Below the pieces are notes generated by a model that had not been told where the DNA came from, searched no databases, and worked only from the letters and a program-made list of their open reading frames with translations. The translations under genes were made by a program, and so were the position numbers. From a virus, in the IMG/VR virus record IMGVR_UViG_3300029915_000005: DNA of 64,000 nt; one strand, written 5' to 3'. This document shows positions 3,001 through 29,211 of the stretch, one piece after another (the stretch's first letter is position 1; each line of letters opens with the position of its first letter).

Positions 3001-6000
3001 TAACATCAAATATAAATGCGATTATTAATAGCGTTATCATTATCGATCATGTTGATCCATCTGCAAACATATCAATACAAGGATCTTTTATAGTTTCAGA
3101 TTATTTCTTGCAAAATGGTTACGCAAATTTAATTGTTGCCACTAGCAATAATATATTAAATGGAAATATTATCACTTATAATCCTGCATGGAATTCAACT
3201 TCGATCTATACAAGCAAAAGTTTGCGAAGCAATTCTATTGCAGAAAGCAATATTTCATTATCAGATACTACTCGATATGTGGATAAAGATAACATTACTT
3301 GGGCTGAATATGAATTAATTGCTCCATATACTAATCAAATAACTTATCCAGATGTTGCTTTTCAATTACCAATTACGTCTGTTGCGTATGATGATATTAA
3401 TCAACTATTATGGTCTGGAAAACCTTCAGCTATAGGAAATAATGGATTAGTAGAACTTAGACAATTGACTGAAAATATATCTTCCACTGATATTTTGGTA
3501 TCTGTTATTGGTGGAAGTGTCTATGATATTGAAACTATTAGGCCAGATACTGCTCTTCTTGGATCAGCAGTAGTGTGCGCTAACGGATTTGCTGTAGCAA
3601 CAGCAACCAGTTCTAATGCTACTGCTAATATTAATAATATTGGTCAAATATATATTATCAAAAATAATACAAATGGATTATACCCAGAAATAACTCAAAT
3701 TCTTAGCGCAGACGCTGTTCCAGCGATATATTTAAATGGTGCAAATTTTGGAAAGAATTTAGCCATAAGCGATGATGGAAATTGGCTGTATGTAGTTATT
3801 GATAATTTTGATGGTACAGGACATGGGGGAATCAATGCGTATCAATTAAAAACTAACGCTAATGCTTCTTCATATACATTGGCAGAGCCTCCAAATAATA
3901 CATTAATTAAAGTTACTACACCAATCTTTAATGCTGATTCGTACAGCATTACTGTAACAGTGTCAGTTCCAAACGAAATACCAATTATATTAATACCTCA
4001 TATGGATTATTCTGTTAATCCTTTCGACCCAACTGATATTTTCTTATTTGGAAATCCAATTCCGAATATTGTGGGTACTACTGTTTCTGTCGAAGGTCTT
4101 TCTCAATATTATGCTTGGGTTGATACATTGGTAACTCCGTTGGGATCAAATACCAATTTCGGAGCGTCAATATCTTGTGATGCAACTGGAGAAGTAATAA
4201 CAGTTGGAGCACCTGATTATAATAATGGTGCAGTTATTATATACAGAAGAATTATTGAAAACTTATATAATCCGACAACTGGTGTATACACTCAAACATT
4301 TCCATCGCTAAATTCATTAAAATTTGAGTTATCTCAAATTTTGAACGCACCAAATTCATATGATTCTCAATTTGGTGCTTCTGTTGCTATCCAAAATAAT
4401 CAATTATTGGTGGGAAGTCCTAATAGCACAATAAATAATAAACTCAATAAAGGAGTTATATATTGCTATTCATTAGACACCCAAGTTCAAACTCAAAAAA
4501 ATGTACCAGTAGCAAATTTAACTTTTCCAATTTTACCTTTTAGAATTAATAATTGGATAACAACAAATACCTCTTTGGATATTTCATCATTACTAACAAA
4601 TATAAATTCATTATCTAATTATTCTGGAGTTACAGCGACTCTAATAAATTCAAATATTATATTGACTATAAATGAGACGTTGCATACTTCAGGTTTGACT
4701 CCAGCTTTAATTTTTTGGAATATAGATTCTCCATTATTTAATAATGGACCATTATTCAGTGAATTCACATTAACAAATACTTTATATTCAAATTCAATTA
4801 ACTCCACCAATTTTGGTCAAAATATAAAATGGATTGCATCTGACTTATTCGGAGAAATTGAAAATATTGGATTTAATCAAGTAAATACCCCTGATTCCAC
4901 TGATGGCACTTACTATGATGGCGGAAATACTAATTTCAATGAAACAACCAATCAATATTCTCAGAATTTAAAAATTTATCAAGTTTTGAAATCCAATCGA
5001 TCTTGGATACATTCAAATTCTGATTTGTTGCAACCAATTGTTGTTTTTACAAAAACAATATCTGGTATAAACTATCCATCTATAATATATGCCGCAGATA
5101 TTACAAATCTGTTTGTGATAGATAGTAACAATCCAACAAAATCAGTTGAAGTATTTAACAATGAAAATTTTGCTCATGGCTGGACTGTAGCAACCGCTCA
5201 AGAATTTCCAATTGATTCTACTAGCATCAGTAGAGCATGGATTTATGATTCTATTACAAATATTAAACTTTCTGATTTAGAAATAGTTGATTTAAATGCT
5301 GGAATTTTACCAGGAGCAATTGCCAGCGATCTGGATTTTATTTGTGATAATGATCCTGCTAATTATAATACACAAAAATGGAATCCTGGAACATTATATA
5401 ATATGGGAGATAGAGTTATATACAATAACCAATTGTATGCAGCATTATTTTCTGGAAAAAGTGGCAGCATATTTAATTCTTCTTTATGGGAATTATTGAG
5501 TCTTCAAAAAACATTTGAAGCTTTTGGTCCATCTTTATGGGGATCGCACCAAAAAGGCATGACATGGTTCAAAACTAATAATTTAAAAACTGTAAATGCA
5601 CAATTGGGAAATATATCTGAACGCGCTGCAAATTGGAATACTTGGTTTCCAAATTCAAATATTGAAGTTTATGAATGGGTTACAAGCTCTGTTCCTCCCA
5701 ATTCATATATATCCAATGACACAAATGGATTCATCATAGATATTAATTGCCCATATACATTTGATAATTCAACAAAAATATATGGCTTCTGGGTTTATAA
5801 TAAATCCATACCTGGTTCTTTGCATACAGTTTCTACCAATCAGCTTATATCATCATTATCTGATATTCAAAATTCTGGAATTCCCATGATTACTGCTATT
5901 GATAATAATGTTATATCTATTTGGAATATCAATCAATTTATTTCCAATAATACAGCAATTCTCCACATAGATTATGTTGTGGCAAATGGAAATAATCAAT

Positions 6001-9000
6001 TACATAATGAATTCGCCCTTATCAGCAATGATGGGAAAAAATCTTGGTATAAAACTCCAATCTATTCTAAATTCATTGATAGTTTGAGTGGCATGACTGA
6101 TTTAAATCAATTAGTACCAGATATTACTTTACCAATAAATCAGCAAACAGGAATATTAATAAATCCTCAACAATCTATTTTTGTTGATAGAATACAAGCA
6201 GCAAATATATATTTTACTGTAATAAATCAGAACTTATCAAATTTGGCAGTCGCATCATCATCAGTTATTTCTTTATTAAGTGCATCTGATCCTATTCCAA
6301 CTACTGGATTTTTGCAACAAATTCCAGACAGAGATGTTTTGAATGAATTAAATATTAATGATTATCCAGAACATTATAAAATTTTATTGACTACTGATGA
6401 TCTTCTATCTCCTGCTGGATGGTCAATAGTAGAAGCTATTAATGGAAATTGGGAATTTTTTAAAGTACAATTATATAATTTAACCAATAACTGGAAATAT
6501 GCTGATTGGTTTTCTTCAAACTATGTAAAGTCTACTCCAATGTTTGTTTTGAATAATATTGGAGAACTACCAAGCATAGTATACAATATAAATGATATTA
6601 TTCAGATTAATACCAATGGAAATAACAATAAAATAATTTATAAAGTTCTTTCCAATGAGTTAAATCCTGATATTTTGGAGTTAAATCCTATATTTATTCA
6701 AAACGGAACCATTCAATTTTTGTCGAATATTTATGATTTTGGATTTGACATTGACGCATTTGATACTACTCCTTTTGATGATGATCCATACATTGAACTT
6801 CGTATGATTACTCAAATACTAAATGATTATATTTTAACTGGAAGCAAAGATTTAACAACAGCAGCCGACGATGCATTTTATGCAGTGTTACAATATGTCA
6901 TTCATGAAAATAAAAATCTTGATTGGTTATTTAAAACTAGTTTTATTACTGTCAATTACATTAATAGAAATTTAAATATTCAAGGATCATATGAACCTGA
7001 TAATCAATCTATTATTGAAGACTTTGTAAATGAATCTACTCCTTTTCATACTCGTATCAGAGCATTTTATGATACTTACACTGCCAATGATTATGGAAAC
7101 ATTGGAACTGTAGATTTTGATTTGCCAGCACAGTATGATGAAAATTATGCCAATATTGTATTAAATTACAGCGATAATGTAAAACCAAACGGATTATTGC
7201 AATTAAGTCAATTTGGCCAAAATGTTGGAATGGCTGCTGATTTTGATTCTTTTTATATTACATCAACTGGCATTCCTATTATTTCTCAAAGTAATGATAG
7301 TATATCACAAGATTGGATTTTTGGATTTAAACAGCATGTGTATTCTGATTCTATTAATTTTAATACTGTTCCCAATAACATTGGGCCTATTGCTTCTGCA
7401 ATAGACGGTGTGCCATTCTACAGCGCAAATAGTGGAATTATGGAAACATTATACCAAACTGGAAACTTAATAAATTCACAAACATTTACAATTAATACTG
7501 TATGGCTAGATCAACAAAATAATATAGATACTGGTATAGGGCTACCAAATGAATTGGGAATTTGCCAATATCTATCAGATCCTTATTTATTATATAATAA
7601 AAATGTTTTAACACATAGTCCATTACTAGGATATGCTTGGGACGGAGTTCCTATATATGGTCCTTATGGATATGTAGAAAATAATGGAGACGGCGGAATT
7701 TTTATTAACACTAGCAGTTATAAGTTATTAACTACTCCTAGATTAGATAAAACTGGATTTTCAATTGTTAATGGTTTGCAATTGGCAAATTATAATATGC
7801 CAACTGGAGAATATATTGAAGATTATGAATATGTTCCTGGTTTTGGTAGTCTTGATCAAAATAATGGAAGATATTGCACAACACCAGAATATCCATTAGG
7901 AACATATGCATACTTTATTTCTGTCGATTCAATTTTTCTAAAACCAGTATATCCATATGTAATTGGGCCAACTTATTACGGAATTCCTTATGGATTAAAA
8001 TATTCATATGTTAATGGTATTAGTACACCAGTTTATCAAAATGGAAAAGTTGCTCTGCCTCAAATTAATATAGCAAATAGTGCCAATTTCATTAGAACAC
8101 CAGATGGTTCTGTTAGTTCTGATTCTTTAACTTTACAGAAACCAATTTATGCTCCTTGGAATGATAATTATATTAACAATAGTCAGTTGATTAGGCATCT
8201 CAATACCACAATAAGATTTGATAGAGTTAATAAAGAAATTGAATATTTAACTGCAAACACATCTTATCCAGCCAAAGAAGTATTATTTAATTCAAATTCT
8301 GGAATATTTATGCAATCGTTAGTTGCCAATGCCAACAGCGCAAATATTATAGATGCAAATATTTGGGGAGTAGCAAATTCAATGGCAATTGCAACTTCTA
8401 CAGCAATGAACCGAATAACAGCAGAATATTCGCCGTCTTCCAACATGTTTGCCAATCAAGCAAGATTACTAATGGACGGTATTGATTATTCTGGTGTAAT
8501 AGTAAAAAATGAAAATTTTGTTGATTCATATTCTGTTCCAACAGGTTCATTGTTTGATTTAGATGATTCTTTTGCAGCAAACACTTCATTAAATATTTCT
8601 TGGAGGCCAGGATTGATTACCAGTTCTGCATTATCCAGCGAAGTTTATAGATTTGGTAACTCATCTGGAGCATTCAATACCAAAACTAAACAATATATAT
8701 CTGCAAATTTAATGAGTGATGATATTTCTGCTCTGAGTATCAATTCTAGTAATTTTACATTGGAATTTTTCGTTAACTTCAGCAATTTAAATGCTGGCAA
8801 TATCATGGTTATGGTAGATACGAGAGATTATTACTATTCCCCATCTGGCTTAGTAATATATAAAAATAATGGCAATCTTTGTTTGGGATCAAATACTTCC
8901 ATGCCATTGTTATCATATAATTTACCACCATTACCACAAAATGAATGGCAATTTATTACTGCACAAGGATATACTACTAATATTAATGGAAATCTTTCTA

Positions 9001-9443
9001 GCAATCTATACATGTATTTGAATGGGCAATTAATAAATAGTATAATGCAATATTACAATTTTTCCGATTCAAATTTAACTTTAGGTGCTGATGTTATTGG
9101 AGGGAATGTATGTTGTGGATATATGGACGAAATCAGATTAACCAAAAATATTAATCGTTATGATTATAATGCTATAAATATTAATGTTCCATCCAGTCCA
9201 TTTCCAAGAGAGAATGATCCATATCTTAATATAATAGATACTCCTTTGTTGTTTGGATTTGAATCTTTTAATAATGAAGGTCCAGCGTCAATAACATTTA
9301 ATTCAATTAATTCGCAAACATTAATTAATGATTTATCATGGAATACTAAAACTCTAGAGCTTGTAAACTATAATGCTGGAAATGTTATTGTAGATTCTTC
9401 TCTAATAAACAATCAAAATTTTTCCGTAAAACTAAATCAATAG
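3..9443 (+). CDS. Giant virion structural protein (baseplate-wedge-like), 5'-truncated by the window; FG-GAP-like repeats, YHYH-like domain, C-terminal LamG/ConA-like domain
   Basis: The frame of the 204..9443 ORF is open back to position 3, so the true start is upstream. FGASISCD/FGASVAI and VGAP/VGSP repeats; HSPLLGYAWDGVPIYGPYG...LDQNNGRYCTTPEYPLGTYAYF; FTLEFFV...GYMDEIRLTK; sits in a structural cluster. Confidence 0.75.
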   Translation, partial: TGDNLSIYEIPNTTGSFIPATPTKLGLSAAYVPQIYVDNTYQIPRNVLQGHDGSITECFNDYRDNLLLDYEIRVYNNLKVNNQLLTDIIQTHVPQNGRFRNELAYDFSPYSPSEQLTISQRMFFEWAAQYNINYTNFYDANNMFTWNWSSSLDKFSDSQPLLGYWRGIYNWFYDSENPNTRPWEMLNISVKPAWWDSIYGPGPYTGGNLILWNDIANGIIRNPSGITTSSYGIRYYNTNSVLSVIPVDSYGILLNPNQSIIGTYNDSAAENSFVFGDSGPVETAWKRSSIYPFSKLRSKILQNPLFMLGTLWDTNNYLPTVELNQFRFQNGLLGSIKQVALNSVDNNGLAQINSILNYSIEYLRNEGKDPSLLRTAIDNTNVNLVYNLGGYADANNLTVLATPNNPNDVGAAELISNEDYSLFLNESSPVGVLTYSGIIITTAANGQGYQISGYDKGNPYFMIYPALSFVSGPTIGISPNLFTYPKQFDSNPSIVSYNTIFGTQQEVINFIAGYEQFLISNGLNFNTNPTQDKIDYAAAALQFVKWSLVNWNNSQNISLIINPAASIIEYDALTGTLHDLTDSTSSLLLDVNGNIIDGKYLDVFRDINTVTITHQGGGVFSCIRANIINYEHRFTINNISSFNDTIYDPITGNRQLRLKISGQKTANWTGSLDFPGFLICTNQVNLWNPNQDYLIGSIVQWKNSNYVATTNIIGSSTFQYSQFSLITTKFTNSILPNLSLKATDYSHAYDPNYRPYINDLVSLRNNTIGYIERDWLNSLNIDLSAQSNFYRGWIKEKGTLNSLNSYSRGSTPGLNTQVILNEEYAMKVGEYGSDSRTGYGEVSLPPTVNSQNPLVISFVSSPNSEDTTTTQIVPFNLYEKSINWTNDFIQNFGNLKATTSSFESAGPVIPSRLITQSYQNIPGFEKSDEDSLFFSNVQTLINSTSQNSIIKIAENNGSFWLETNQISAGPNQWDIITFSPAITNILSITQLNPQTLSFNLTSNINAIINSVIIIDHVDPSANISIQGSFIVSDYFLQNGYANLIVATSNNILNGNIITYNPAWNSTSIYTSKSLRSNSIAESNISLSDTTRYVDKDNITWAEYELIAPYTNQITYPDVAFQLPITSVAYDDINQLLWSGKPSAIGNNGLVELRQLTENISSTDILVSVIGGSVYDIETIRPDTALLGSAVVCANGFAVATATSSNATANINNIGQIYIIKNNTNGLYPEITQILSADAVPAIYLNGANFGKNLAISDDGNWLYVVIDNFDGTGHGGINAYQLKTNANASSYTLAEPPNNTLIKVTTPIFNADSYSITVTVSVPNEIPIILIPHMDYSVNPFDPTDIFLFGNPIPNIVGTTVSVEGLSQYYAWVDTLVTPLGSNTNFGASISCDATGEVITVGAPDYNNGAVIIYRRIIENLYNPTTGVYTQTFPSLNSLKFELSQILNAPNSYDSQFGASVAIQNNQLLVGSPNSTINNKLNKGVIYCYSLDTQVQTQKNVPVANLTFPILPFRINNWITTNTSLDISSLLTNINSLSNYSGVTATLINSNIILTINETLHTSGLTPALIFWNIDSPLFNNGPLFSEFTLTNTLYSNSINSTNFGQNIKWIASDLFGEIENIGFNQVNTPDSTDGTYYDGGNTNFNETTNQYSQNLKIYQVLKSNRSWIHSNSDLLQPIVVFTKTISGINYPSIIYAADITNLFVIDSNNPTKSVEVFNNENFAHGWTVATAQEFPIDSTSISRAWIYDSITNIKLSDLEIVDLNAGILPGAIASDLDFICDNDPANYNTQKWNPGTLYNMGDRVIYNNQLYAALFSGKSGSIFNSSLWELLSLQKTFEAFGPSLWGSHQKGMTWFKTNNLKTVNAQLGNISERAANWNTWFPNSNIEVYEWVTSSVPPNSYISNDTNGFIIDINCPYTFDNSTKIYGFWVYNKSIPGSLHTVSTNQLISSLSDIQNSGIPMITAIDNNVISIWNINQFISNNTAILHIDYVVANGNNQLHNEFALISNDGKKSWYKTPIYSKFIDSLSGMTDLNQLVPDITLPINQQTGILINPQQSIFVDRIQAANIYFTVINQNLSNLAVASSSVISLLSASDPIPTTGFLQQIPDRDVLNELNINDYPEHYKILLTTDDLLSPAGWSIVEAINGNWEFFKVQLYNLTNNWKYADWFSSNYVKSTPMFVLNNIGELPSIVYNINDIIQINTNGNNNKIIYKVLSNELNPDILELNPIFIQNGTIQFLSNIYDFGFDIDAFDTTPFDDDPYIELRMITQILNDYILTGSKDLTTAADDAFYAVLQYVIHENKNLDWLFKTSFITVNYINRNLNIQGSYEPDNQSIIEDFVNESTPFHTRIRAFYDTYTANDYGNIGTVDFDLPAQYDENYANIVLNYSDNVKPNGLLQLSQFGQNVGMAADFDSFYITSTGIPIISQSNDSISQDWIFGFKQHVYSDSINFNTVPNNIGPIASAIDGVPFYSANSGIMETLYQTGNLINSQTFTINTVWLDQQNNIDTGIGLPNELGICQYLSDPYLLYNKNVLTHSPLLGYAWDGVPIYGPYGYVENNGDGGIFINTSSYKLLTTPRLDKTGFSIVNGLQLANYNMPTGEYIEDYEYVPGFGSLDQNNGRYCTTPEYPLGTYAYFISVDSIFLKPVYPYVIGPTYYGIPYGLKYSYVNGISTPVYQNGKVALPQINIANSANFIRTPDGSVSSDSLTLQKPIYAPWNDNYINNSQLIRHLNTTIRFDRVNKEIEYLTANTSYPAKEVLFNSNSGIFMQSLVANANSANIIDANIWGVANSMAIATSTAMNRITAEYSPSSNMFANQARLLMDGIDYSGVIVKNENFVDSYSVPTGSLFDLDDSFAANTSLNISWRPGLITSSALSSEVYRFGNSSGAFNTKTKQYISANLMSDDISALSINSSNFTLEFFVNFSNLNAGNIMVMVDTRDYYYSPSGLVIYKNNGNLCLGSNTSMPLLSYNLPPLPQNEWQFITAQGYTTNINGNLSSNLYMYLNGQLINSIMQYYNFSDSNLTLGADVIGGNVCCGYMDEIRLTKNINRYDYNAININVPSSPFPRENDPYLNIIDTPLLFGFESFNNEGPASITFNSINSQTLINDLSWNTKTLELVNYNAGNVIVDSSLINNQNFSVKLNQ

Positions 9444-9451
9444 GAATAAAC

Positions 9452-10903
9452 ATGAGCACACCAGGATATATTCGGGCTGCTGGGGACCAAAATTATAATT
9501 TTGGAAATAATGATTTCACTGTGGAATTTTTTGCAAGTACTATAAGCAATAACTATCCTCAGACATTATTTGAAATTTCAAATAATGAATCTTTTGCAGC
9601 CAATAATTATAATCAAACTCGTTTTATAACAGCTATAGAAAATGGCAATATCAATTCTTATGCTTTACAAACTAATAACAATTCTTTATTATTTTCCATA
9701 AATGGTAATGAATTTTCTCCAAATGTTACTCACTTTATAAGTGCAGAAAGAAAGAACAATAAATTTTATCTGTTTTTGGATGGAGTTTCTCAAAGTCAAC
9801 CCGTTAATGCTGCTATTCCAATTCCTGCACAATATATTATAAATAACTCGAATAGTATGCAATTACCAAGAATAAACAGCTCAGCATTGATTACAATAGG
9901 TGCTGATAAAAATGGGGCAAATACTTTCATTGGAAGTTTTGGAGATTTTAGAGTAACCAATGGAATTGCGCGTCATGTAAGAGAATCACAAGTACAAAAC
10001 AAAATCACCAGTGAATTTACTGATATTGTCTTAGGAACTAGAGCAGAAGATATCAATATTGCTGGAGGAAATTTTATAGATAGTATATCAAGTCATTATC
10101 CAGAAGAATTGGTGCCAGGGCAAATGTTTGATGCTTTAAACATATCTGTGTATCAAAATTCAAATTGCGCAAATTTAAGTTCCAATATAGCTAATATTCA
10201 AGCAATAACAACAAATACACCAAATCCATCATTTAATGCAAATTCAGTATTGCTTGGTTTTAGAATATTTAAAGATACAATAGAGATTGGACCAATTGGA
10301 GAATATAATTTTAACACTGAAAATTCTCTAGGAATCTTTCCAGTTCCATGGTCGTCGATATCTTCTGATTCTGGAACTGTATCAATAAATGGAAATATTA
10401 TTGATTCTTCTCTATGGAATATACAAGCCAATAAATTATATTTATATGTTACTGCTCCATTAAATAGCAATATACAAATTATTGCAACTGGACCAACTTC
10501 GTATTATAGTATTGGTGCCAATGCCATAACCACGTTATCTAAAAATTTATATTCAACTGATTCTCTAATTTCAGCGAGTAATGTGGCTGGATTTATAACT
10601 CCAAACCCTTTAACAAACACCCGCGGAAAATTGTTTATTAATGGAGAATGTATAACTTATCTATATATTGATAGAATTGGAAATACTTTATCAGGATTAA
10701 GAAGAGGAGTTAATGGAACAGGAGTTCCAAATATATACATAGCCAATGCTAATATTCAAGTTATAAGTGCATCATATGATCGGGAACTTCCTGGCAATCC
10801 AGGAGAATTTATTTGGTATAATAATTCAAATTCAAATTTGGCTGCTACCAATTCTAATATTTCAAATTTTTTAATTAATCAAGGGACTATTCCTCCAGTA
10901 TAA
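9452..10903 (+). CDS. Virion structural protein with N-terminal LamG/ConA-like domain
   Basis: DFTVEFF...FIGSFGDFRVTNGIARH LamG-type pattern; PEELVPG and GECITY...LRRGVNGT segments typical of large-phage baseplate proteins. Confidence 0.6.
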   Translation: MSTPGYIRAAGDQNYNFGNNDFTVEFFASTISNNYPQTLFEISNNESFAANNYNQTRFITAIENGNINSYALQTNNNSLLFSINGNEFSPNVTHFISAERKNNKFYLFLDGVSQSQPVNAAIPIPAQYIINNSNSMQLPRINSSALITIGADKNGANTFIGSFGDFRVTNGIARHVRESQVQNKITSEFTDIVLGTRAEDINIAGGNFIDSISSHYPEELVPGQMFDALNISVYQNSNCANLSSNIANIQAITTNTPNPSFNANSVLLGFRIFKDTIEIGPIGEYNFNTENSLGIFPVPWSSISSDSGTVSINGNIIDSSLWNIQANKLYLYVTAPLNSNIQIIATGPTSYYSIGANAITTLSKNLYSTDSLISASNVAGFITPNPLTNTRGKLFINGECITYLYIDRIGNTLSGLRRGVNGTGVPNIYIANANIQVISASYDRELPGNPGEFIWYNNSNSNLAATNSNISNFLINQGTIPPV

Positions 10904-13254: not shown

Positions 13255-13848
13255 ATGAAAATATTTGAAGTAATTGATCCTTTAAATTTCAACTCGATAA
13301 AAGAATTTATAGAAATCAATTGCTCAGATATACTTAAATTTTATAAAGAAACTGGAAATATGCTATATCGAGGCATAAAAAACAATAAACCATATTTAAT
13401 TAACAATCCTGTTAAATATAGAACACCAGTAGATACTCCTGTGAACATTCAATATATAGTAGATGTGAAACTTGAGGCAGCAGGATTTACAGCATTAAGA
13501 TCAAACAGCATTTTTTGTTTTGGAAATTCTTATAATCCCAAATTTTATGGTAGAGTATATATGGTTTTTCCTTTCAATGGTTTTTCATATACTTGGTCTT
13601 TAAAAATTAAAGATTTATATGACGACTATGCTAGTGTATCTATGTTTTCAGGTAAAGCAATTAAAGATATGGAAAATATGTCTCCAAAAGAAGTCGTTGA
13701 TATTTTTGATTTTGTTTCAACAAATTTAAAAACTGCTTGTAATACTCCCAATGAAATACTAATTCATGGAAAATGTTTATTAGTAAACGCTGAATTATAT
13801 GAAAATAAAATAAATAAATTTATCTCTTTTTATTATTATCCCAATTAA
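13255..13848 (+). CDS. ADP-ribosyltransferase-like protein, paralogue 1 (leader MKIFEV)
   Basis: LYRG...GFTALRSNSIFC...YGRVYMVFP...NEILIHG; clearly paralogous to 29514, 30629, 31225, 32021. Fold is inferred from motifs. Confidence 0.5.
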   Translation: MKIFEVIDPLNFNSIKEFIEINCSDILKFYKETGNMLYRGIKNNKPYLINNPVKYRTPVDTPVNIQYIVDVKLEAAGFTALRSNSIFCFGNSYNPKFYGRVYMVFPFNGFSYTWSLKIKDLYDDYASVSMFSGKAIKDMENMSPKEVVDIFDFVSTNLKTACNTPNEILIHGKCLLVNAELYENKINKFISFYYYPN

Positions 13849-13853
13849 TTATC

Positions 13854-13882
13854 TTGACATCTTTATAAAAATAAACTATAAT
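13854..13882 (+). promoter_or_regulatory. sigma70-type promoter TTGACA-N17-TATAAT
   Basis: Perfect consensus; ATG at 13889 follows 6 nt after the -10 box. Confidence 0.8.
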
Positions 13883-13888
13883 TAAAGC

Positions 13889-15196
13889 ATGATTAAATTT
13901 GTATCAGCGTTGTGTGGATCAGGAAAGACAGAATTTGCATTAAATCTGTCAAAAGAACTCATTAAAAAGAAAATGAGAGTTCTTTTCGTTTGTCCATCCC
14001 TCGAATTACAAAATGAAATATCTAAAAGATTAAATAATACACCACATCGTATTATAAATTATAAAAATACGATTGCTGGCCAAGGAGTAGTAGGATCAAT
14101 TGAAAAATATCTGCGACGACCAGCAAAATATGAAATTTTAATTATTACTCATGCTTCATTTAAATCCATTTCTCATTTTCCAAATAAAAAAAATTGGACT
14201 GTATTTATAGACGAAGAGACAGAAATTTTTGATTTTATGTCTTTTAATTCTTGCGATGCAGCAAATTATGGGTATGGCAATGATCTAATTGAAGATATGT
14301 TAAAAATAAGCACATTCTCTTTAAATGAAGGCGGATTTACGTCAATACAACCCAAATCATTATCCAAATCAGATAAAGGTTATTTAAAATCAATTTCATA
14401 TGGCGGGAAAGATAGTACATATGTATATCCTCCATTTCAAAAATTTATTCAGCATTTATTAAATCCAAATATGGCACTATATGGCGATACTACAACAATG
14501 GTTGCTTTTCGTTTTGGAGACACAAATGCAGAAATGTGGGCTGAATTAGATACTAATATTTTTGAGGATTTCGCTGATTTATATTTAATGGGAGCAGAGA
14601 TTCAAAGAAGCAAATTGGCTGCATATTTAAATTTAAAAGGAATTAAAACTGAAAATTTATTAATATCAAAAAGGTTTGAAACTCACGATCAACCTATTAT
14701 AATTAAATGGATGACAACACATTCTCCATGGAGCAAAAATTATTATAATGAACCAAATAAAATTGAATCCACAGTTACTAATTTTGAATTATATGACATG
14801 TTGGTTGGTTTAACCATTGGAGAAGAAGAAATACTAGTGCAAAATAATATTGGAAATCCATTTAAGCATATAAAAAATATGATTCAAATGAATTTTGAGA
14901 TTAAGGGATTAAATAAATATAATAATTATGCTCACTATGCTGAGTCAGGTGCTTACAATGTCCCGCCAGCTTGCAATAAAAAAATGACAGATTTGGGTTT
15001 TGATATGGAAGAATTGCAGTTGCATCATGCATTATCTCACGCATATCAAGGATTTCTTAGGTCGAGTATTAGGAATAATATATTTTTAAATAATATTATG
15101 TTTCTTCCAACTGAGCAAATGGCAATGAATATGAGAAATATATATTTTCCCAATGCTGCTGTCTCACAAATAGAGGGAGCAAAATATTTTTTTTAA
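13889..15196 (+). CDS. SF2-like helicase / possible origin-binding protein
   Basis: Walker A ALCGSGKT, motif Ia FVCPSLEL, IITHA, Walker B FIDEE; adjacent to the long non-coding repeat region. Confidence 0.6.
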   Translation: MIKFVSALCGSGKTEFALNLSKELIKKKMRVLFVCPSLELQNEISKRLNNTPHRIINYKNTIAGQGVVGSIEKYLRRPAKYEILIITHASFKSISHFPNKKNWTVFIDEETEIFDFMSFNSCDAANYGYGNDLIEDMLKISTFSLNEGGFTSIQPKSLSKSDKGYLKSISYGGKDSTYVYPPFQKFIQHLLNPNMALYGDTTTMVAFRFGDTNAEMWAELDTNIFEDFADLYLMGAEIQRSKLAAYLNLKGIKTENLLISKRFETHDQPIIIKWMTTHSPWSKNYYNEPNKIESTVTNFELYDMLVGLTIGEEEILVQNNIGNPFKHIKNMIQMNFEIKGLNKYNNYAHYAESGAYNVPPACNKKMTDLGFDMEELQLHHALSHAYQGFLRSSIRNNIFLNNIMFLPTEQMAMNMRNIYFPNAAVSQIEGAKYFF

Positions 15197-16769: not shown

Positions 16770-17390
16770 ATGGCTATTTCAAATTCAACCCCACTATTAA
16801 ATAGCCAATTAAAAAGTGCTTATCGAATATTGGCCAAAGAATGCCATCCAGATGTTAATCCAAATGATCCTGAAGCGACTGAAAAATTTCAAAAATTACA
16901 AGAAAAATATAAAGATTGTTTGCAAGCCATTATTCAAAATAAAAAAATATATTGTGTAACAGTTATTATATCTTTACAAGATTCTATTTTGGGTTGTGAC
17001 AGATATTTTTCATCTAATGATGAAAAACGTAGATTCATATTAAAAATTCCACCTGGAATTATCAGCAATGACACTATAAAATATAGAAATATTCAGATGG
17101 AAGAAAATTCTTTAAGTGTTTTGGAAGTTAAAGTTATCGTTGACTTTCCACCAAACTACTTATATAAGAATGGAAAATTATTTAGGTCTCTATCAATTCC
17201 TTTTTGGAAATTGTTTTTCGGTGGAGAAAAAGTTTTTAATGGTCCAGATAATGCGAGAATCAGAGTCGTAATTCCACCCAAAACAAAATCTGGAACATTA
17301 TTCTATATCCCAAATGAAGGATTGCTGGATAAATTAACCAAAAAAAGAGAAATTTTATATATTAGAATTAAATCTTCAATATTTTGTTGA
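16770..17390 (+). CDS. DnaJ/CbpA-like co-chaperone
   Basis: LKSAYRILAKECHPDVN (HPD J-domain motif); C-terminal IPPG / IPPKT...GL DnaJ_C-like segments. Confidence 0.8.
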   Translation: MAISNSTPLLNSQLKSAYRILAKECHPDVNPNDPEATEKFQKLQEKYKDCLQAIIQNKKIYCVTVIISLQDSILGCDRYFSSNDEKRRFILKIPPGIISNDTIKYRNIQMEENSLSVLEVKVIVDFPPNYLYKNGKLFRSLSIPFWKLFFGGEKVFNGPDNARIRVVIPPKTKSGTLFYIPNEGLLDKLTKKREILYIRIKSSIFC

Positions 17391-17461
17391 CAATCACGCT
17401 ATATTTTGTTGACAATCGCGCCAAACAATGATAATATCTAAATATATCGAAAGGACAAAAC

Positions 17462-19714
17462 ATGCCAGAATTTAATAATCAATCATTTTTAATTAAGAAT
17501 ATCATTGATATGAGTTTTCAGTTGGCTATTGGTTTAAATCAAACCACTATCACTTCTGAACATATTTTATATATAGCAATTCAAAATTCTAAAGTAAAAG
17601 AATTTTTTAATAATCAAGGTATTGAAACTCAAAGTTTATTAAATGATATTTTTAATTACATCAAATCTCAATCCCATTTATTGAAAAATCAAATTTTTAA
17701 TGAAAATCCAGACGTTATGACTGGTCAAATTACTGCATCAGTTCAAATGATCATTGTTAATGCTGCAACTGACGCCCGAAAAAATAATCGTGAAATTTCA
17801 CATTATGATATATTTAACAATATTTTGAAAAATACTGAATCATATGCCAGTTATTTTATGACAAAATATGGAATTGATGAGGAAATGATTAAAAAAATGA
17901 ATGATGCTGTTGATATTAATAAATCAGCTTTGGATGAATTTTGTATTAATCTTAACGAAAAAGTAAAAAAGAATTATGATGTTCTTATTGGCAGAGAGAC
18001 AGAATTGTTCAGTATTGCTCATACTTTGGCAAAAAAGAAGAAGAGCAATGTTTTAATGATTGGCGATCCTGGAGTGGGAAAGTCGCAGATTGTGGAAGGT
18101 TTGGCACACAATATTAATATTGGAAAAGTACCCAAAATTCTAAAAGATAAGATTATTTTTAGTTTGGATGTGGGTGGTGTGCTGGCTGGTTGCAGATATC
18201 GCGGAGATTTTGAAGAAAAAATCAAAAATATTATTTCAGAATTAGTTGCAAATCCAAAAGCTATTTTATTTGTAGACGAAGCTCATCAGATGGATGCTGG
18301 TGAAGGAAAGAGTCAATCAGGTGTTGGTTTTTCAGCAATGTTGAAGCCAGAACTTTCTCGCGGAAACATTAAAGTTCTAGCAGCGACTACATGGGAAGGA
18401 TACCGTCAAACATTTGAAAAAGATTCTGCTTTGATGCGCAGATTTAGGGTTCTGAATATCGATGAGCCTTCTCATGAAGAAACTATTTTGATTCTTAATG
18501 GCAATAAACTTTCCATGGAGAAATTTCATCATTGCAAAATTAATCAAGATGCAATTAAAGCAGCCGTTGAATTAACTGGAAGATATCAAACTGATAGAAA
18601 ATTTCCAGATAAAGCAATTGATGTTATTGATAGCGCGTGCGCAAGAACTCAAGTTTTATCATTAAAAAATAAAATTGTTAATAGAGAATCTATAGTTGCT
18701 GAAGTTTCAGAAATCACTGGGATTCATATTAAAGATACTGATACAAAAACTTCAATGGATATTTTGACAATTGGAAGTATATTAAAAAATAAAGTATTTC
18801 ATCAAGATAACGCTATTGATTCTGTATCTGAAGGCTTGATTATTGCTCAATCTGGTCTGCGTGATCCAAATAAACCAATTGGAAGTTATGTATTTACTGG
18901 TCCTTCTGGCGTAGGAAAAACATTTCTCGCCAAGCAAATCGCTGCTCATATGAATATGTCATTACTTAAATATGATATGAGTGAATTTCAAGAAAAGCAT
19001 ACTCTTGCTCGTTTGATTGGAGCACCTCCTGGATATGTAGGGTTTGGTGATGGCGGGACAGGCGAAGGTCAACTTATTAATGATATTATCAAACATCCGA
19101 ATTCAGTAATTTTGTTCGATGAAATGGAAAAAGCACATCCTGATATTTTTACTATTCTTCTCCAATTATTAGATGATGGCAAAATTACAGGAACAACTGG
19201 AAAAGTAGCTGATTGCAGAAATTCAATTGTGGTAATGTGCAGCAATCTTGGCTCTAAAGAAAGTGAAAAATTGAATTTAGGATTCAATACCAATAATAGT
19301 GGAAAGAGTGAAACTTCAAAAGCAGTTGATTCATTTATGTTAACAGAACTTCGTGGAAGAATCACTGGTATTGTTGAATTTAACAAATTGGACGATATTA
19401 GCCTTCGTAGAATAGTTAATGAAAGAATTTTAGATATTGAATCTTTATTAAAGGATAAGAGCATTAAGCTCATCCCCAGTGAAAATTTAATAGATCATAT
19501 TCTTTCACTAAATACTGATAGTCAATATGGTGCTCGAAAGATTGCAAAAATTGTTGATTCAACAATTAAGTATCCTTTAAGCGTAAAATTATTAAATGGC
19601 GATATATCTAATAATTCAAATGTTCATTTGGATTGGTGTAATAATGTTTTAACTGTAAATCATTCTATTTCTACTGTTAAAATAATGAAAAAAGTTGCCC
19701 AACCAACAATTTAG
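17462..19714 (+). CDS. clpA: ClpA-like Hsp100 AAA+ ATPase
   Basis: Two AAA modules (GDPGVGKS/FVDEAH; GPSGVGKT/LFDEMEKAH), RLIGAPPGYVG pore loop, LGF docking loop, no ClpB middle coiled coil; TTGACA at 17409. Confidence 0.9.
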   Translation: MPEFNNQSFLIKNIIDMSFQLAIGLNQTTITSEHILYIAIQNSKVKEFFNNQGIETQSLLNDIFNYIKSQSHLLKNQIFNENPDVMTGQITASVQMIIVNAATDARKNNREISHYDIFNNILKNTESYASYFMTKYGIDEEMIKKMNDAVDINKSALDEFCINLNEKVKKNYDVLIGRETELFSIAHTLAKKKKSNVLMIGDPGVGKSQIVEGLAHNINIGKVPKILKDKIIFSLDVGGVLAGCRYRGDFEEKIKNIISELVANPKAILFVDEAHQMDAGEGKSQSGVGFSAMLKPELSRGNIKVLAATTWEGYRQTFEKDSALMRRFRVLNIDEPSHEETILILNGNKLSMEKFHHCKINQDAIKAAVELTGRYQTDRKFPDKAIDVIDSACARTQVLSLKNKIVNRESIVAEVSEITGIHIKDTDTKTSMDILTIGSILKNKVFHQDNAIDSVSEGLIIAQSGLRDPNKPIGSYVFTGPSGVGKTFLAKQIAAHMNMSLLKYDMSEFQEKHTLARLIGAPPGYVGFGDGGTGEGQLINDIIKHPNSVILFDEMEKAHPDIFTILLQLLDDGKITGTTGKVADCRNSIVVMCSNLGSKESEKLNLGFNTNNSGKSETSKAVDSFMLTELRGRITGIVEFNKLDDISLRRIVNERILDIESLLKDKSIKLIPSENLIDHILSLNTDSQYGARKIAKIVDSTIKYPLSVKLLNGDISNNSNVHLDWCNNVLTVNHSISTVKIMKKVAQPTI

Positions 19715-24691: not shown

Positions 24692-25210
24692 ATGAAGATT
24701 AATGAAGTCATTATCGATAATGAAAATGGATTAGGAGGAGTTTCATATAATCAAGAAATTGATTATCTTGGTCTTAGAGTGCTAATGTATCCATCCACAT
24801 TTTTAAGCCTAGCATATTATAGAAGTCGAAACGATTTAGGAAATGTTGACTATATAAAAAATTATATTAAAAATGGTGGGACTATTGGCGCTCCATTCCT
24901 TCAAATAAGTATTCCTAATAGATGGGAGAATGATGATTATTCTATTCCATCCATAGTTATTGGTCATGAAGGAAGAAATAGAATGATGGCACTCGATGAA
25001 CTTCAAGATGAAGGATTAGAACCTGATGTGCCAGTTGAAACTCATTTATTGTTTTATAAATATAGAGCCAGGCATTTAAAACCAGAATGGATAATACAAT
25101 TAAATAAACAACTTTATAATCAAAATACAGAATATGAATATCATTCTGGAGAAGTGGCTTATACAGATAGCCCTATAACCAAAGGGCCATTGTTTAAGGT
25201 TGTAAATTAG
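24692..25210 (+). CDS. ParB/Srx-like domain protein (leader MKINEV)
   Basis: APFLQI...VIGHEGRNRMMAL resembles the ParB/Srx (D/E)GxxR motif; TAAATA 5 nt upstream. Confidence 0.45.
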   Translation: MKINEVIIDNENGLGGVSYNQEIDYLGLRVLMYPSTFLSLAYYRSRNDLGNVDYIKNYIKNGGTIGAPFLQISIPNRWENDDYSIPSIVIGHEGRNRMMALDELQDEGLEPDVPVETHLLFYKYRARHLKPEWIIQLNKQLYNQNTEYEYHSGEVAYTDSPITKGPLFKVVN

Positions 25211-26100
25211 ATATAAAAGATTTTACTAAATTATCAATATTTTCTTTATTCCAATATGGAATTATTAATAATGGAATATTATTAATATTACAATAATTAT
25301 ATTTTATATAATCATTTTTCTTAGTAGATTCAAAATATTTTTGAAAAATAGGTTCATAATGTTGTTTTCCTTGGTATTCAATTAATCCTATAATTTTATT
25401 ATTTTTAATAATCCCTATATCAAAAGGTAATGGATATTTATTTTTGCATAATGTAATTCTTATTTGTTCATCAAATTCTATTGGTAATGATTCCAACGTT
25501 TTTATAATTTTTAATTCTCCAGAACTTCTTTTACATTTTGGACATTTTCTTCCCATTAAGTGTTTATTTGGGCTTTGCCAAAAAGAGCCATGCTTCTTAC
25601 ATATTATTTCAACTTTTTGGCGTGAAGTTAAATAATTTACATTATCATAAATAAATTCATTTTTGTGTATGATAATAGCTTTTGTTATAAATTCTTTTGT
25701 ATTGCTTGTTTTTGTTTTAGAAATACTGTTAAATCCACATTGTGGACAACCAATTTTTTGTAAATGCACGCCGGGGGCTTGTTTAAAAATTCCATGTTCC
25801 TTACATTTTATATCCATTTTCTTTTTGGCGTTGTAATAAGTTTTAGAAATATAAGAATATTTAAAATTATGAATAATATTTGCAGAGTTAACAAATTCTG
25901 TAAATGTTCTATTAAATCCACAGCATTTTGGGCAACCATTTCCTGATAAATGTGCATGAGAAGATTGCAAAAATTCTCCATGAATTGGGCAAATAATTAT
26001 TAATTTGTTTTTTGCATTAATGTATATAGATTTACTATAATTATATTTAAAATTATGAATTTGATTTTGATATAAAATATGCAGTAGTATAAATAGTCAT
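25194..26100 (-). pseudogene. Zn-repeat (CxxHG...CxxC) + Vsr/PD-(D/E)XK-type endonuclease, frameshifted near its 5' end
   Basis: GGAGG RBS and ATG at 26100 (MTIYTTAYFISKSNS*); the homologous frame resumes at about 26060 (IHNFKYNYSKSIY...CPIHGEFLQ) and runs into the track ORF 25194..25970; C-terminal LPFD...IEYQGKQHY. Confidence 0.7.
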
Positions 26101-26170
26101 AGCTGAATGACCTCCAGTGGTCTTTAGAGCGAGTAGATGTCGAAATCATCGTGACTCGCATTTGTATTTA
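26088..26170 (+). ncRNA. Two-hairpin structured element, copy 1 (candidate antisense sRNA)
   Basis: TATAAATA, CTGAATGACC-loop-GGTCTTTAG, GCGAGT-A-GATG-loop-CATC-GTG-ACTCGC, opposing TATTTA; same layout at 46540 and 59093. Confidence 0.6.
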
Positions 26171-26193
26171 TATGAAAAAGAATAAATATAAGT

Positions 26194-29100
26194 ATGAGAT
26201 TACAAAATTTGTTTGAAGAAAAAATAAAACAAACAACTGCAACAATTTTTAGCGGTGGGTTTCACCCATTCCTTCCACAACATTTATATTGCTGGGAATA
26301 TTTGATTTCAAAATTTCCAAATGCACATCATTATATAGCTTCCACTAATAATATAAGTGAGCGACCATTTTCATTTAAGCAAAAACAATTTTTAGCAGTG
26401 CAAGCTGGCATACCTAAAAATGGATTTGTACAAGTAACAAGTCCTTATAAAGCATTGGAGATAACTAGTAAATATGATTCAAACAATACTATTGTTATAT
26501 TTGGTTTAAGTGAAAAAGATGCAGAAAGACTCGGACCAACGATAAAGAAAGATGGGACCCTGTCATTTTTACTACCATATCCTGGGCCTTCTACTCCACT
26601 AGAAACTTTGAATAAACATGCATATTATGTAATTATTCCTGTCCATAAGTATAGAGTTTTGGGACAAGAGATAACCTCTGCTTCTCAAATAAGAAAGATG
26701 TATACTTCTTCTAATGAAAGCGATAGATATACTATTATTCGAGAATTATATCCAAATTCTATGAAAGTTGGAGAGATTAAAAAAATATTTGATCAAGTTT
26801 TGCTTGCTCCAATAAATGAAGATATATATGACGTGATTTATAGACCAAAAAACGTTTATAATATAGAAGCGAATGAATATCCAGAATTTATGTTAGATGG
26901 GGATGTTCAACGTATGATATATGATTTGCACCAACAGGAAGAGATTGATGCTGGCTCTGATATTTGGGATAGAATGGATAGTGTCTGGTATAAGTTACAA
27001 AATGTTTCTATAAAAAAATTAGATAACATAAATGATTTAGATGAAGATGATGACCAATATTCTGATGAAATAACTCCTTTTCCTCCAATAGTATTAACAA
27101 AAAGAGGGGAAATATTAGATGGATTTCATAGGACTATTTCTGCTAAAATTCGTGGTGATAAAACAATTAGAGCATATGTTCCTTGCAAAAAACCAATTAA
27201 TGAATCTAAAGCTGGATTAGAATATAAATTAAAACTTGGAAACAAAAAATCTGTAATAGATTCAAGTGGCTGGCTATTTCCAGATAAAACTTTTGTTCCA
27301 CTTGTTCCAGGAACAACTCACGAAACAATGGCTACAAGATTGGGATATAATGGTTATGAAGGAATATATAAAATTGGATGTGTAAGAGTTTCCCGTCCAA
27401 TTTATGCTCCGGGTAAAATTTATATAGAAACAATACAAAAATTGAGTGATAGTACTTATAAGCTAATTATGAATATTATTCATAGAATAAAAGTGGATGT
27501 TAAAATAGATGTTACTGTTGGATCAGGTAATGGATATTTTCAACATTATAAATGGGATTTCAAAGATAGACAATTGCATAAAACAAATTTTTATGAGTCA
27601 GTTATAAATGAAGAACCTGATTTTAATTATACAAAATTTAATAATAGAGATGAAGAGCTTTCAAGATTAAAATTTGATTATTCAGTAATACCCAGTAATA
27701 ATGACGGAATTGGTGGATTTTGGATAATTGTAAATAACTCCTCTGGTGTTAGTGTGGCAGATATTGATTTGGTGGAAGTTAATTCAAAAACATTAGTAAT
27801 TTCTTTTATTAGAATTAATTTAAAATGGAAAGGTACTGGACTTGGGCAAATTCTGTATGACAAAGCGATTAAAAAAGCCAAACAATTAGGATATAAATAT
27901 TTTCGATCAGATACTGATAGATCAGCGGCTGCTGAAAAAGCGTGGAAAAGATTGGCAGCAAGATATACAGTTAAGTACAAAGAAGGCAAAGAATTTAATA
28001 AAGGGTATTATGAAATTGATCTAAGTAAAGTTCAATTAAAAGAATCATTTGATTATTCCTATAGAGCTAAATTATTTCAACTTAGACCACAAATGATTAA
28101 AGCTGCACAAAAAATATATGATAAATGGGAAGGAGGAGAAGTTGGTTTGTGTGATAGTATTGCAGAGTCAATTTCTGATTGTGTATTAAAAAATATAAAG
28201 AATATTGATTCATACGTGGTTGGCCATAAAAATCCAAAATTGCATGAACTTCATTTTTGGGTAAGAGTAGATTTTAATAATGGAGAAAAATATTATGATA
28301 TTGACTTACCATTTGGAAAATATGAAAGATATGATAATAAAAAACATTATTTTGTAAAAATACCAAATGTAAAATTTCAATTAAATGATTTATTAATATA
28401 TCAATCATCTTTAAATTATAATAAAGCTCCTTGGGAAATAAGAAATAGTTATACTCCACATAAATCAGATAGTTATTTTATCAGCGAATCTATTGCACAA
28501 GAAGTTATAAAAGTTGGTAAAAGCAATGATGAAATTATAAAATTAATCAAAGAAGCTACAAAATATAAATTATATGTTCCTACATTTACAGCGCAAAAAG
28601 AATTTGGTTGGATATTACAAACAGGAAATAAAGGTAAAATAAGTAAAATGGCTATGATGTATGTTAACAACATGCCTGTCGCTTGGATCATTTATTGGAA
28701 ACATGGAAGTTTTATGTCTGACTCTAATCCAAGAACAGAAAATGACAAATATTGGAGATTTACTAAAAAAGAATTTAGAAATATAGGTTATTATCATAAA
28801 TTAAAAAAAGCTTTATGGAATATAATTAATGAGGCACCAGATTTTGGCTACAAAAGTTTTAATGATAGAGATGAAGATATAAGCAAATTAAAGTGGGAAA
28901 TTGATAAAAGACCATTTAAAGATTGGAATAGTGATGAGGAACACCTAGGAATAATAATTAGGGCAAGAAATCCAGAAACTAATGAAGTAGAAGGTTTTAT
29001 AACTTCTAATGAGATAACCAAGAAAACATTAAAAATTTCAAGAAGTCAATTAACATCTAATCATAATTGGCAATCGACTGGTCTTGGACAAATGTTATAT

Positions 29101-29211
29101 GATAAACTTATTAACGTTGCAAAAGAATTAGGTTTTGATTATGTAGACAGTGATTATATTTTATCTGTGGATGCTAGAAAAGCTCTGAAAGATATCCAGT
29201 GCAAAAATTAA
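26194..29211 (+). CDS. Polyprotein 1: HIGH-type nucleotidyltransferase-like, ParB/Srx-like, unknown, GNAT, papain/transglutaminase-like, GNAT-like, GNAT
   Basis: FSGGFHPFLPQH...SASQIR; PPIVL...LDGFHR; WKGTGLGQILY; GLCD...HFWV...YDID; FRNIG; WQSTGLGQMLY; domains separated by INE/LKE/ISE; TAAATA 5 nt upstream. Confidence 0.65.
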   Translation: MRLQNLFEEKIKQTTATIFSGGFHPFLPQHLYCWEYLISKFPNAHHYIASTNNISERPFSFKQKQFLAVQAGIPKNGFVQVTSPYKALEITSKYDSNNTIVIFGLSEKDAERLGPTIKKDGTLSFLLPYPGPSTPLETLNKHAYYVIIPVHKYRVLGQEITSASQIRKMYTSSNESDRYTIIRELYPNSMKVGEIKKIFDQVLLAPINEDIYDVIYRPKNVYNIEANEYPEFMLDGDVQRMIYDLHQQEEIDAGSDIWDRMDSVWYKLQNVSIKKLDNINDLDEDDDQYSDEITPFPPIVLTKRGEILDGFHRTISAKIRGDKTIRAYVPCKKPINESKAGLEYKLKLGNKKSVIDSSGWLFPDKTFVPLVPGTTHETMATRLGYNGYEGIYKIGCVRVSRPIYAPGKIYIETIQKLSDSTYKLIMNIIHRIKVDVKIDVTVGSGNGYFQHYKWDFKDRQLHKTNFYESVINEEPDFNYTKFNNRDEELSRLKFDYSVIPSNNDGIGGFWIIVNNSSGVSVADIDLVEVNSKTLVISFIRINLKWKGTGLGQILYDKAIKKAKQLGYKYFRSDTDRSAAAEKAWKRLAARYTVKYKEGKEFNKGYYEIDLSKVQLKESFDYSYRAKLFQLRPQMIKAAQKIYDKWEGGEVGLCDSIAESISDCVLKNIKNIDSYVVGHKNPKLHELHFWVRVDFNNGEKYYDIDLPFGKYERYDNKKHYFVKIPNVKFQLNDLLIYQSSLNYNKAPWEIRNSYTPHKSDSYFISESIAQEVIKVGKSNDEIIKLIKEATKYKLYVPTFTAQKEFGWILQTGNKGKISKMAMMYVNNMPVAWIIYWKHGSFMSDSNPRTENDKYWRFTKKEFRNIGYYHKLKKALWNIINEAPDFGYKSFNDRDEDISKLKWEIDKRPFKDWNSDEEHLGIIIRARNPETNEVEGFITSNEITKKTLKISRSQLTSNHNWQSTGLGQMLYDKLINVAKELGFDYVDSDYILSVDARKALKDIQCKN

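Follow-up and report, generated by a model that had tools for sequence, protein, structure and literature searches.

How might a phage release and deliver seven enzyme-like modules that it encodes as one continuous chain? The question is raised by P0001, an uninterrupted open reading frame (ORF) in a 64,000-nucleotide (nt) stretch of viral DNA from the IMG/VR record IMGVR_UViG_3300029915_000005, hereafter called the window (Table 1). The encoded protein is of the polyvalent type. Polyvalent proteins carry 2-15 disparate conflict-type domains per polypeptide and are encoded by phages or conjugative elements (PMC5512222). We favor the view that a T4-like phage uses P0001 as a cargo polyprotein, cut at the joints between its modules by the phage's own prohead protease, and place the probability of this reading at about 0.65. 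A preliminary description of the locus had already proposed a polyprotein cut by the head-maturation protease, and the comparisons reported here support that idea, with cleavage and packaging as predicted steps. The polyprotein reading is well supported because of the placement of the sites, the shuffled relatives, the Peptidase_S77 gene, the distribution of the motif in the capsid and scaffold proteins, and a switch of the joint motif between phage lineages. Proteins identical to P0001 are encoded on 9 metagenome contigs. Peat samples contain the contig, for example those behind L001-L009. A blastn search with the P0001 gene against 50,697 phage records gave no match, and neither did a scan of a viral contig collection for the gene.

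Table 1. Coordinates of P0001, its modules and associated features. Positions refer to the window unless contig L008 is named; aa, amino acids; pLDDT, predicted local distance difference test score.
Feature	Position	Strand	Description
P0001, whole ORF	26194..29211	+	single open frame, 1005 aa; seven-module polyvalent-type protein
N-terminal leader MRLQNLFE, 8 residues	26194..26217	+	LFE (residues 6-8) at end, next residue E; pLDDT 52 over residues 1-10
Module 1, residues 9-209	26218..26820	+	NMNAT/NadD-like HIGH nucleotidyltransferase; INE 207-209 (nt 26812-26820) at end
Module 2, residues 210-337	26821..27204	+	sulfiredoxin/ParB-like, DGxHR motif; INE 335-337 (nt 27196-27204) at end
Module 3, residues 338-473	27205..27612	+	confident fold, GW...H...Y...G...W-DG; tandem FYE 466-468 and INE 471-473 (nt 27604-27612) at end
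Module 4, residues 474-617	27613..28044	+	GNAT acetyltransferase; LKE 615-617 (nt 28036-28044) at end
Module 5, residues 618-765	28045..28488	+	conserved Cys-His-Asp module; ISE 763-765 (nt 28480-28488) at end
Module 6, residues 766-880	28489..28833	+	one relative only; INE 878-880 (nt 28825-28833) at end
Module 7, residues 881-1005	28834..29208	+	second GNAT acetyltransferase, paralogue of module 4 (module alignment)
TATAAATA box	26088..26095	+	about 100 nt 5' of the P0001 start; possible T4-type late promoter, weak evidence
Peptidase_S77 prohead protease	L008:11819-12469		PF03420 match
Scaffold-like protein	L008:14140-15225		
gp23-type capsid protein, 394 aa	L008:15241-16425		

The six internal joints of P0001 each carry an [IL]-x-E tripeptide, and all six positions given for these tripeptides in the preliminary description are correct. 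Two further sites are LFE at the end of the leader and FYE shortly ahead of INE471 (sites are named here by their first residue). The number of motifs alone says little, because P0001 contains 15 [IL]-x-E tripeptides and about 10 are expected from composition; their position is the real signal. The tripeptide INE is more striking, with 4 occurrences against 0.35 expected (Poisson p about 5e-4). The modest [IL]-x-E total would also suit a rival explanation, which we regard as unlikely, namely that P0001 is an uncut multidomain polyvalent protein that acts whole in the cytoplasm or the virion. The hydrophobic-x-Glu tripeptides would then be inherited module ends or linkers.

Structure prediction indicates that most of the sites lie between folded units. 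P0001 was modelled with AlphaFold as two halves, residues 1-480 and 460-1005, on hand-checked alignments. In the first half, residues 11-203 have a pLDDT of 86-97 with the helix at 192-203 as the last element, residues 235-330 are of moderate confidence and residues 339-465 have a pLDDT of 85-95. Scores drop below 50 at 208-228 and 334-336 and are about 59 or lower at 471-480. In the second half, pLDDT is below 50 at 460-483, 791-868 and 870-883, residues 613-620 are in coil and dip to 64, module 5 scores 85-98 and the last GNAT domain 87-95. LFE6, INE207, INE335, INE471 and LKE615 are thus found in coil of locally low confidence bordering confident domains. INE878 is located in a low-confidence linker that follows the badly modelled module 6 and precedes the confident last GNAT domain. 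Hence 6 of 7 sites, LFE6 included, fall at domain borders in coil, and the model does not settle ISE763. Fold matches likewise end at the sites (NMNAT-like at residues 13-207, sulfiredoxin/ParB-like at 263-333, GNAT at 486-616). Most of the other [ILVM]-x-E tripeptides (residues 54, 105, 182, 192, 526, 656 and 683) are inside domains, with a pLDDT of 75-97.

The relatives of P0001 show extensive shuffling of modules around the same joints. An exhaustive search recovered 1648 representative proteins with at least one module in common with P0001. Modules of the P0001 type occur there next to PF18760 (ART-PolyVal), NUDIX, PF18765 (Pol-beta nucleotidyltransferase), 2H phosphoesterase, Zeta-toxin-like kinase and zinc ribbon domains, in varying order. 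Such freely varying architectures identify the P0001 family as a branch of the polyvalent proteins (PMC5512222). Breakpoints of BLAST alignments between P0001 and 158 relatives cluster at residues 1-18, 199-216, 469-474, 613-624 and 877-882. These clusters correspond to the leader and to the joints after residues 209, 473, 617 and 880, which are the joints rich in relatives.

Hydrophobic-x-Glu tripeptides recur at these breakpoints. After module 1, [ILVM]-x-E occurs no more than 16 residues past the last helix in 113 of 136 relatives (83%), compared with 18% of random windows from the same proteins. Between the module end and the motif there are 0-13 residues. P2 is unconstrained, and Ser, Gly or Ala predominate at P1'. 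Directly before the [SAE]PDF start of GNAT modules, the motif occupies P3-P1 at 45 of 56 starts, against a background of 1.7% per position; here P3 and P1 are kept while P2 may be N, K, F, S, T, L or another residue. Both clear GNAT modules of P0001 indeed start with INE-[EA]-PDF, as had been claimed. Copies of module 3 mostly terminate in [FYLVM]-x-E followed by Ser. Relatives of module 4 terminate in ...DLxKV-x-LKE or stop at ...DLSKV, and copies of module 5 terminate in ...Y[FY]-x-x-E or pass into LLE or VKE followed by SPDF. The single relative of module 6, P0021, terminates in VNE, again followed by SPDF.

Leaders carry the same type of tripeptide. Relatives of P0001 begin with M-x-[ILF]-x-x-[LIF]-F-E, and proteins in which a GNAT module comes first have a leader of 8-9 residues ending in FE or LE (MNLQELFE, MLLAELFE, MKLCELFE, MRIEEIFE), followed by [SAE]PDF. 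The GNAT module begins at the same residue in these proteins as in internal copies. The likeness of leader and joint is expected if one protease reads both, and is hard to explain as structure of unrelated folds. Since the relatives are akin and the counts are not independent, the argument depends on P2 being unconstrained, on spacing that varies and on the return of the motif after unrelated modules, rather than on p-values. An uncut P0001 could account for part of the pattern, given that its two GNAT copies are paralogous and INE-x-PDF could be inherited. Some polyvalent proteins are also delivered unprocessed, such as the N4 virion RNA polymerase and ArdC (PMC5512222). However, the motif also follows the unrelated modules 1, 2, 3, 5 and 6, it keeps P3 and P1 with P2 free, its spacing after module 1 is a poor fit to a structural element, and the N-terminal leaders terminate in the same tripeptide type.

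The head genes of the same phage offer a view of the site that its protease may recognize. Contig L008 and the window share 3725 nt at 100% identity (window coordinate = L008 coordinate + 60275). L008 encodes a T4-type portal, small core-like proteins, a Peptidase_S77, a scaffold-like protein and a gp23-type capsid protein. The protease matches T4 gp21 (5JBL, E 1.5e-14), with His and Ser aligned to Ala residues of the crystallised chain. We take these to be the catalytic positions, mutated in the T4 crystal construct (5JBL). The cleavage motif of T4 gp21 is L/I-x-E. Cleavage by this protease takes place after the Glu of its short motif, and short N-terminal capsid-targeting sequences direct proteins into T4 heads, foreign ones such as beta-galactosidase included (PMC9026906, PMC5694885).

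In the capsid protein, all four [ILVM]-x-E tripeptides (LLE5, LLE17, VLE32 and LSE40) are in the first 42 residues, and the remaining 352 are free of the motif. At the motif density of the polymerase, about six would be expected in those 352 residues, and the probability of such clustering is (42/394)^4, or about 1e-4. Residue 47 of the capsid protein pairs with residue 16 of mature T4 gp23*. The scaffold contains 26 motifs, or 7.2 per 100 aa, compared with 1.6-2.1 per 100 aa in the DNA polymerase, a ClpB-like protein and P0001. Taken together, capsid and scaffold show the distribution typical of substrates of a gp21-type protease, the scaffold being degraded and the capsid propeptide removed, as is known from T4 (PMC9026906, PMC5694885). 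[ILVM]-x-E hence appears to be selected as a protease site in the phage's own capsid and scaffold, which speaks against an uncut P0001 with tripeptides of purely structural origin. The motif distribution in the capsid protein is in itself a clean genomic readout of protease site preference.

The joints of a second lineage, one of non-T4 jumbo phages, carry another tripeptide, which ends in Ala and is mostly K-x-A. Giant relatives, namely P0037 (5005 aa), P0041 (2378 aa, encoded on a contig of 303 kb), P0065 and P0079, have KTA, KAA, KKA, KLA or VTA before the GNAT start SPDF (9 of 56 starts). K-x-A is found 54 times in P0037 where 27 are expected (standard deviation 5), a twofold excess. Some leaders of the giant relatives contain a K-x-A tripeptide as well (...DIKTA, ...LSKTA, ...FKKA). 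The Tunturiibacter phage Tunturi_5 is a member of this lineage: the leader of its gp273 (1489 aa; L013:590-5059) ends in KKA and the GNAT joint reads RVA followed by SPDF. The gene for gp273 adjoins a minor head protein gene. A search of the 309-kb Tunturi_5 genome for the Peptidase_S77, S78 and ClpP families found none; in Mel-JY01, a T4-like phage of Microcystis, the same S77 search detects the protease (L016). The joint tripeptide switches with the phage lineage and the module does not, which argues for the tripeptide as a processing signal and against it as part of the fold. An uncut chain would leave K-x-A at the same place in another lineage unexplained.

Further observations concern the genes of these relatives. 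The gene immediately upstream of P0041 is of the Prok-JAB type, and P0065 has a weak SprT-like match upstream. The cultured T4-like cyanophage Mel-JY01 encodes WWT39297.1 (L015:2926-4845), which consists of a module 1 homologue, an IIAE-GG joint and a part whose KxDG motif resembles that of nucleotidyl-transferase ligases. Mel-JY01 is a possible test system.

Several observations weigh against a cargo polyprotein cut by the prohead protease. ISE763 falls in a helix predicted with little confidence (pLDDT about 61), beside the badly modelled module 6 with its single relative. Few relatives bear on this boundary, which is placed provisionally where conservation stops among the aligned module 5 copies. 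An acidic loop contains LDE282, and IKE785 belongs to the poorly modelled module 6; both are perhaps exposed and could also be cut, which makes the number of products uncertain. Given the kinship of the relatives, the motif before SPDF could be partly inherited with the module. Many module 1 relatives have no obvious N-terminal leader yet carry the downstream motif, and leader and junction motif show no association (Fisher p 0.32), in a crude test with a poor leader classifier. The P0001 gene lies about 43 kb away from the head genes, amid homing-endonuclease and other small genes. Finally, the presence of P0001 in the virion and its cleavage are predictions made from sequence.

Module 1 matches NadD, NadM and NMNAT over residues 13-207 (VIA Z 9.6-10.2; Foldseek E 1e-4). 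Its nucleotide-binding motif is degenerate and reads GGFHPFLPQH (residues 21-30, window 26254-26283), with the first His of H-x-G-H replaced by Leu and the Gly by Gln. The canonical H-x-G-H is kept in 105 of 124 module 1 relatives. An S-x-T-x-x-R-type motif is present as SASQIR. Because LPQH stands in place of H-x-G-H, the chemistry of module 1 may differ. The module resembles an adenylyltransferase of NAD synthesis with a perhaps altered activity. Module 2 matches 6ky4 (VIA Z 6.6, root mean square deviation 2.6, 67 residues) and 6ryk (Z 6.5) over residues 263-333, and PPIV..DG.HR is invariant in its alignment. A profile search of the PDB gave no sequence-profile match for module 2, and the Z scores of 6.5-6.6 are middling.

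Module 4 belongs to PF00583 (E 1.6e-8) and has a fold match with a VIA Z of 12.7 and a root mean square deviation of 2.6 over 119 aligned residues (residues 486-616). Modules 4 and 7 both have fold matches with a Z of about 12, an intact acetyl-CoA motif of the type Q/R-x-x-G-x-G/A and a conserved W-x-GTGLGQ. The labels of the preliminary description for these parts, HIGH nucleotidyltransferase-like, ParB/Srx-like and GNAT, are borne out by Z scores of about 10, 6.5-6.6 and about 12, respectively. The GNAT start [SAE]PDFxYxxFNNRD (27613-27642 and 28834-28863) is the best conserved part of these modules, yet it is of low confidence in the model. It may serve in recognition on the P' side or have a role after cleavage.

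The remaining modules are less easily assigned. Module 3 is found in 12 retrieved proteins including P0001, with 1-4 copies apiece. Its earlier designation as a segment of unknown type stands, as a profile search against PDB structures gave no match better than E 0.1. Module 6 had been called GNAT-like, a label that lacks support given an hhalign probability of 0.2% against the GNAT module profile. Its model (pLDDT 31-57) is too poor for fold comparison.

Module 5 raises the second rival explanation, in which P0001 is cut by other means, either by itself through the Cys-His-Asp module or by another phage or host protease after delivery. Cys653, His687 and Asp704 are invariant in 12 copies of the module. 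The model places Cys653 at the start of a helix and His687 and Asp704 on adjoining strands, an order typical of papain/transglutaminase-like hydrolases. The published model for polyvalent proteins is also one of release by embedded peptidases (PMC5512222). In that survey, an embedded zincin-like metallopeptidase is present in about 36% of polyvalent proteins and is not obligatory, and an assemblin-like peptidase occurs only as a rare C-terminal domain (PMC5512222). Cleavage by such means is nevertheless very improbable for P0001. Module 5 is found in just 11 of 158 retrieved proteins (10 relatives and P0001), whereas the junction motif is family-wide. The motif moreover agrees with the capsid propeptide and scaffold pattern of the same phage. 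A Pfam search of P0001 with E up to 1 found no peptidase family, and no zincin-type metallopeptidase domain was found in the protein. The fold of module 5 matched no peptidase. A PDB profile search gave one weak match (3f44) in which Cys, His and Asp are not aligned, and an Atlas feature search returned unnamed viral clusters only. The Foldseek, VIA and Atlas structure lists contained no fold match for module 5; these lists were filled by the GNAT domains and are not evidence of a new fold. Module 5 is a candidate Cys hydrolase, and its invariant Cys-His-Asp residues and secondary structure would fit the papain/transglutaminase-like assignment in the preliminary description.

Under the favored reading of a cargo polyprotein, P0001 would be made late in infection as a single 116-kDa chain. 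The leader MRLQNLFE is a candidate capsid-targeting propeptide with a cleavage site and would bring the chain into the prohead core, similar to T4 capsid-targeting sequences. The gp21-type Peptidase_S77 would then cleave the leader and every exposed linker behind the Glu of [ILVM]-x-E. Seven products of 13-23 kDa would result, similar in size to the internal proteins of T4 or a little larger. These would be NMNAT-like, sulfiredoxin/ParB-like, unknown, GNAT, Cys-His-Asp hydrolase-like, unknown and a second GNAT. The products would remain in the head, be injected with the DNA and act on the host early in infection. Fusion would allow one targeting signal to load seven enzymes in equal numbers. 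Modules could be exchanged at the joints without disturbing folds, consistent with the observed shuffling. We infer packaging, cleavage and injection of P0001, as well as the targets of the enzymes, from comparison with related systems.

The proposed mechanism joins features of several known systems. Polyvalent proteins share with P0001 many unrelated domains (GNAT, ParB-like, nucleotidyltransferase), extreme shuffling and a presumed delivery with DNA (PMC5512222). Their domains are proposed to be released by embedded peptidases, mostly zincin-like metallopeptidases, whereas the joints and the leader of P0001 carry the tripeptide of a separately encoded prohead protease. The internal proteins IPI-III and Alt of T4 resemble P0001 in a short leader ending in hydrophobic-x-Glu and in the company of a gp21-type protease, portal, scaffold and gp23-type capsid (PMC9026906, PMC5694885). 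Both they and P0001 presumably have an injected host-takeover or counter-defence role, and the neighbourhood of P0001 is rich in similar leaders. T4 cargo, however, consists of single proteins that lose a terminal propeptide (Alt at both ends), while P0001 consists of seven joined modules with predicted internal cuts. The gp21-like proteases of phiKZ, 201phi2-1 and SPN3US cut after Glu at (S/A/G)-x-E or A-x-E, with many head and ejected proteins processed at redundant sites. These cuts mostly remove long propeptides, and a role in separating independent, shuffled enzyme modules is not described for them. At P3, P0001 has a preference for I, L, V or M as in T4, unlike phiKZ-type phages. Polyproteins of eukaryotic RNA viruses are similar to the P0001 reading in having one product, a viral protease and short motifs between folded units. 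There is no evolutionary link, and the cuts in P0001 would occur inside the assembling capsid with cargo as products, rather than replication or structural proteins.

Polyvalent chains and the leader and protease logic of T4 are both known, and prohead-protease sites at the joints of a polyvalent chain appear to be a new variant. A full-text literature search found no account of polyvalent proteins with such sites at their joints; subscription papers were mostly outside its scope, so an earlier description is possible. If the reading is correct, the domains of polyvalent proteins can be freed by a trans-acting prohead protease and a short junction code instead of an embedded peptidase. Packaged and injected effectors of uncultured T4-like phages would then be recognizable from genomes by a leader and joints that match the protease pattern of capsid and scaffold. 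At least 1648 representative protein clusters have modules in common with P0001. Reasons for the fusion would be the single targeting signal, fixed proportions and pieces small enough for exit through the tail. Such chains would also provide natural models for packaging several enzymes in T4-type capsids. The NMNAT-like, GNAT, sulfiredoxin/ParB-like and Cys-His-Asp modules are candidates for functions in early host takeover or counter-defence. More tentatively, and at slightly less than even odds, head-cargo polyproteins might constitute a general "beads on a string" system, in which shuffled effector modules are strung in one chain. Release would be governed by the protease code of the lineage at the leader and at each joint ([ILVM]-x-E in T4-like phages, K-x-A in Tunturi_5-like jumbo phages) and not by an embedded peptidase, and the code would be readable from genomes.

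Leaders similar to that of P0001 are frequent in its surroundings. About ten ORFs around P0001 (22992-39243) start with leaders of the M-[KRNL]-[IL]-x-E type, for example at 24692, 29255, 30629, 37034 and 37822 (minus strand). Further starts of this type are hidden a few codons into longer ORF calls (24106, 29487, 31210 and 38641, the last on the minus strand). Proteins of the head module on L008 likewise begin with M-x-[IL]-x-E-type leaders. Three of the L008 proteins (L008:8864-9415, 10001-10735 and 13346-14062, with 183, 244 and 238 aa, respectively) share a leader of 16-17 residues, MNL[TI]EE..KY..[VI].[NK]E, which is a second, longer type beside the type of 5-8 residues. The 244-aa protein among them has a C-terminal GNAT domain.

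The box TATAAATA upstream of P0001 is one of 23 seen in the window, where 16.4 are expected, and is thus not significant by itself. It forms a facing pair with a second box (26088 on the plus strand, 26165 on the minus strand; 26088-26172) between a minus-strand DUF723 gene and P0001.

The head region of L008 contains two interruptions of T4-type genes or gene order. The portal gene (L008:5663-8824, 1053 aa), at about 65.9-69.1 kb on the window scale and thus past the window end, is interrupted by an intein, with PF14890 (Intein_splicing) between two Portal_T4 matches. A 283-aa ORF (L008:12469-13320) between the protease gene and the scaffold-region genes breaks the T4 gene order and looks like a homing endonuclease. 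Within the window, a 3146-aa ORF (3-9443), open at the window start, is located ahead of genes with tail fibre and virion structural protein matches. Adjoining genes for a DnaJ-like protein (206 aa) and a ClpB/AAA+ chaperone-like protein (750 aa) are found at 16770-19714, according to Pfam matches of the identical contig L001.

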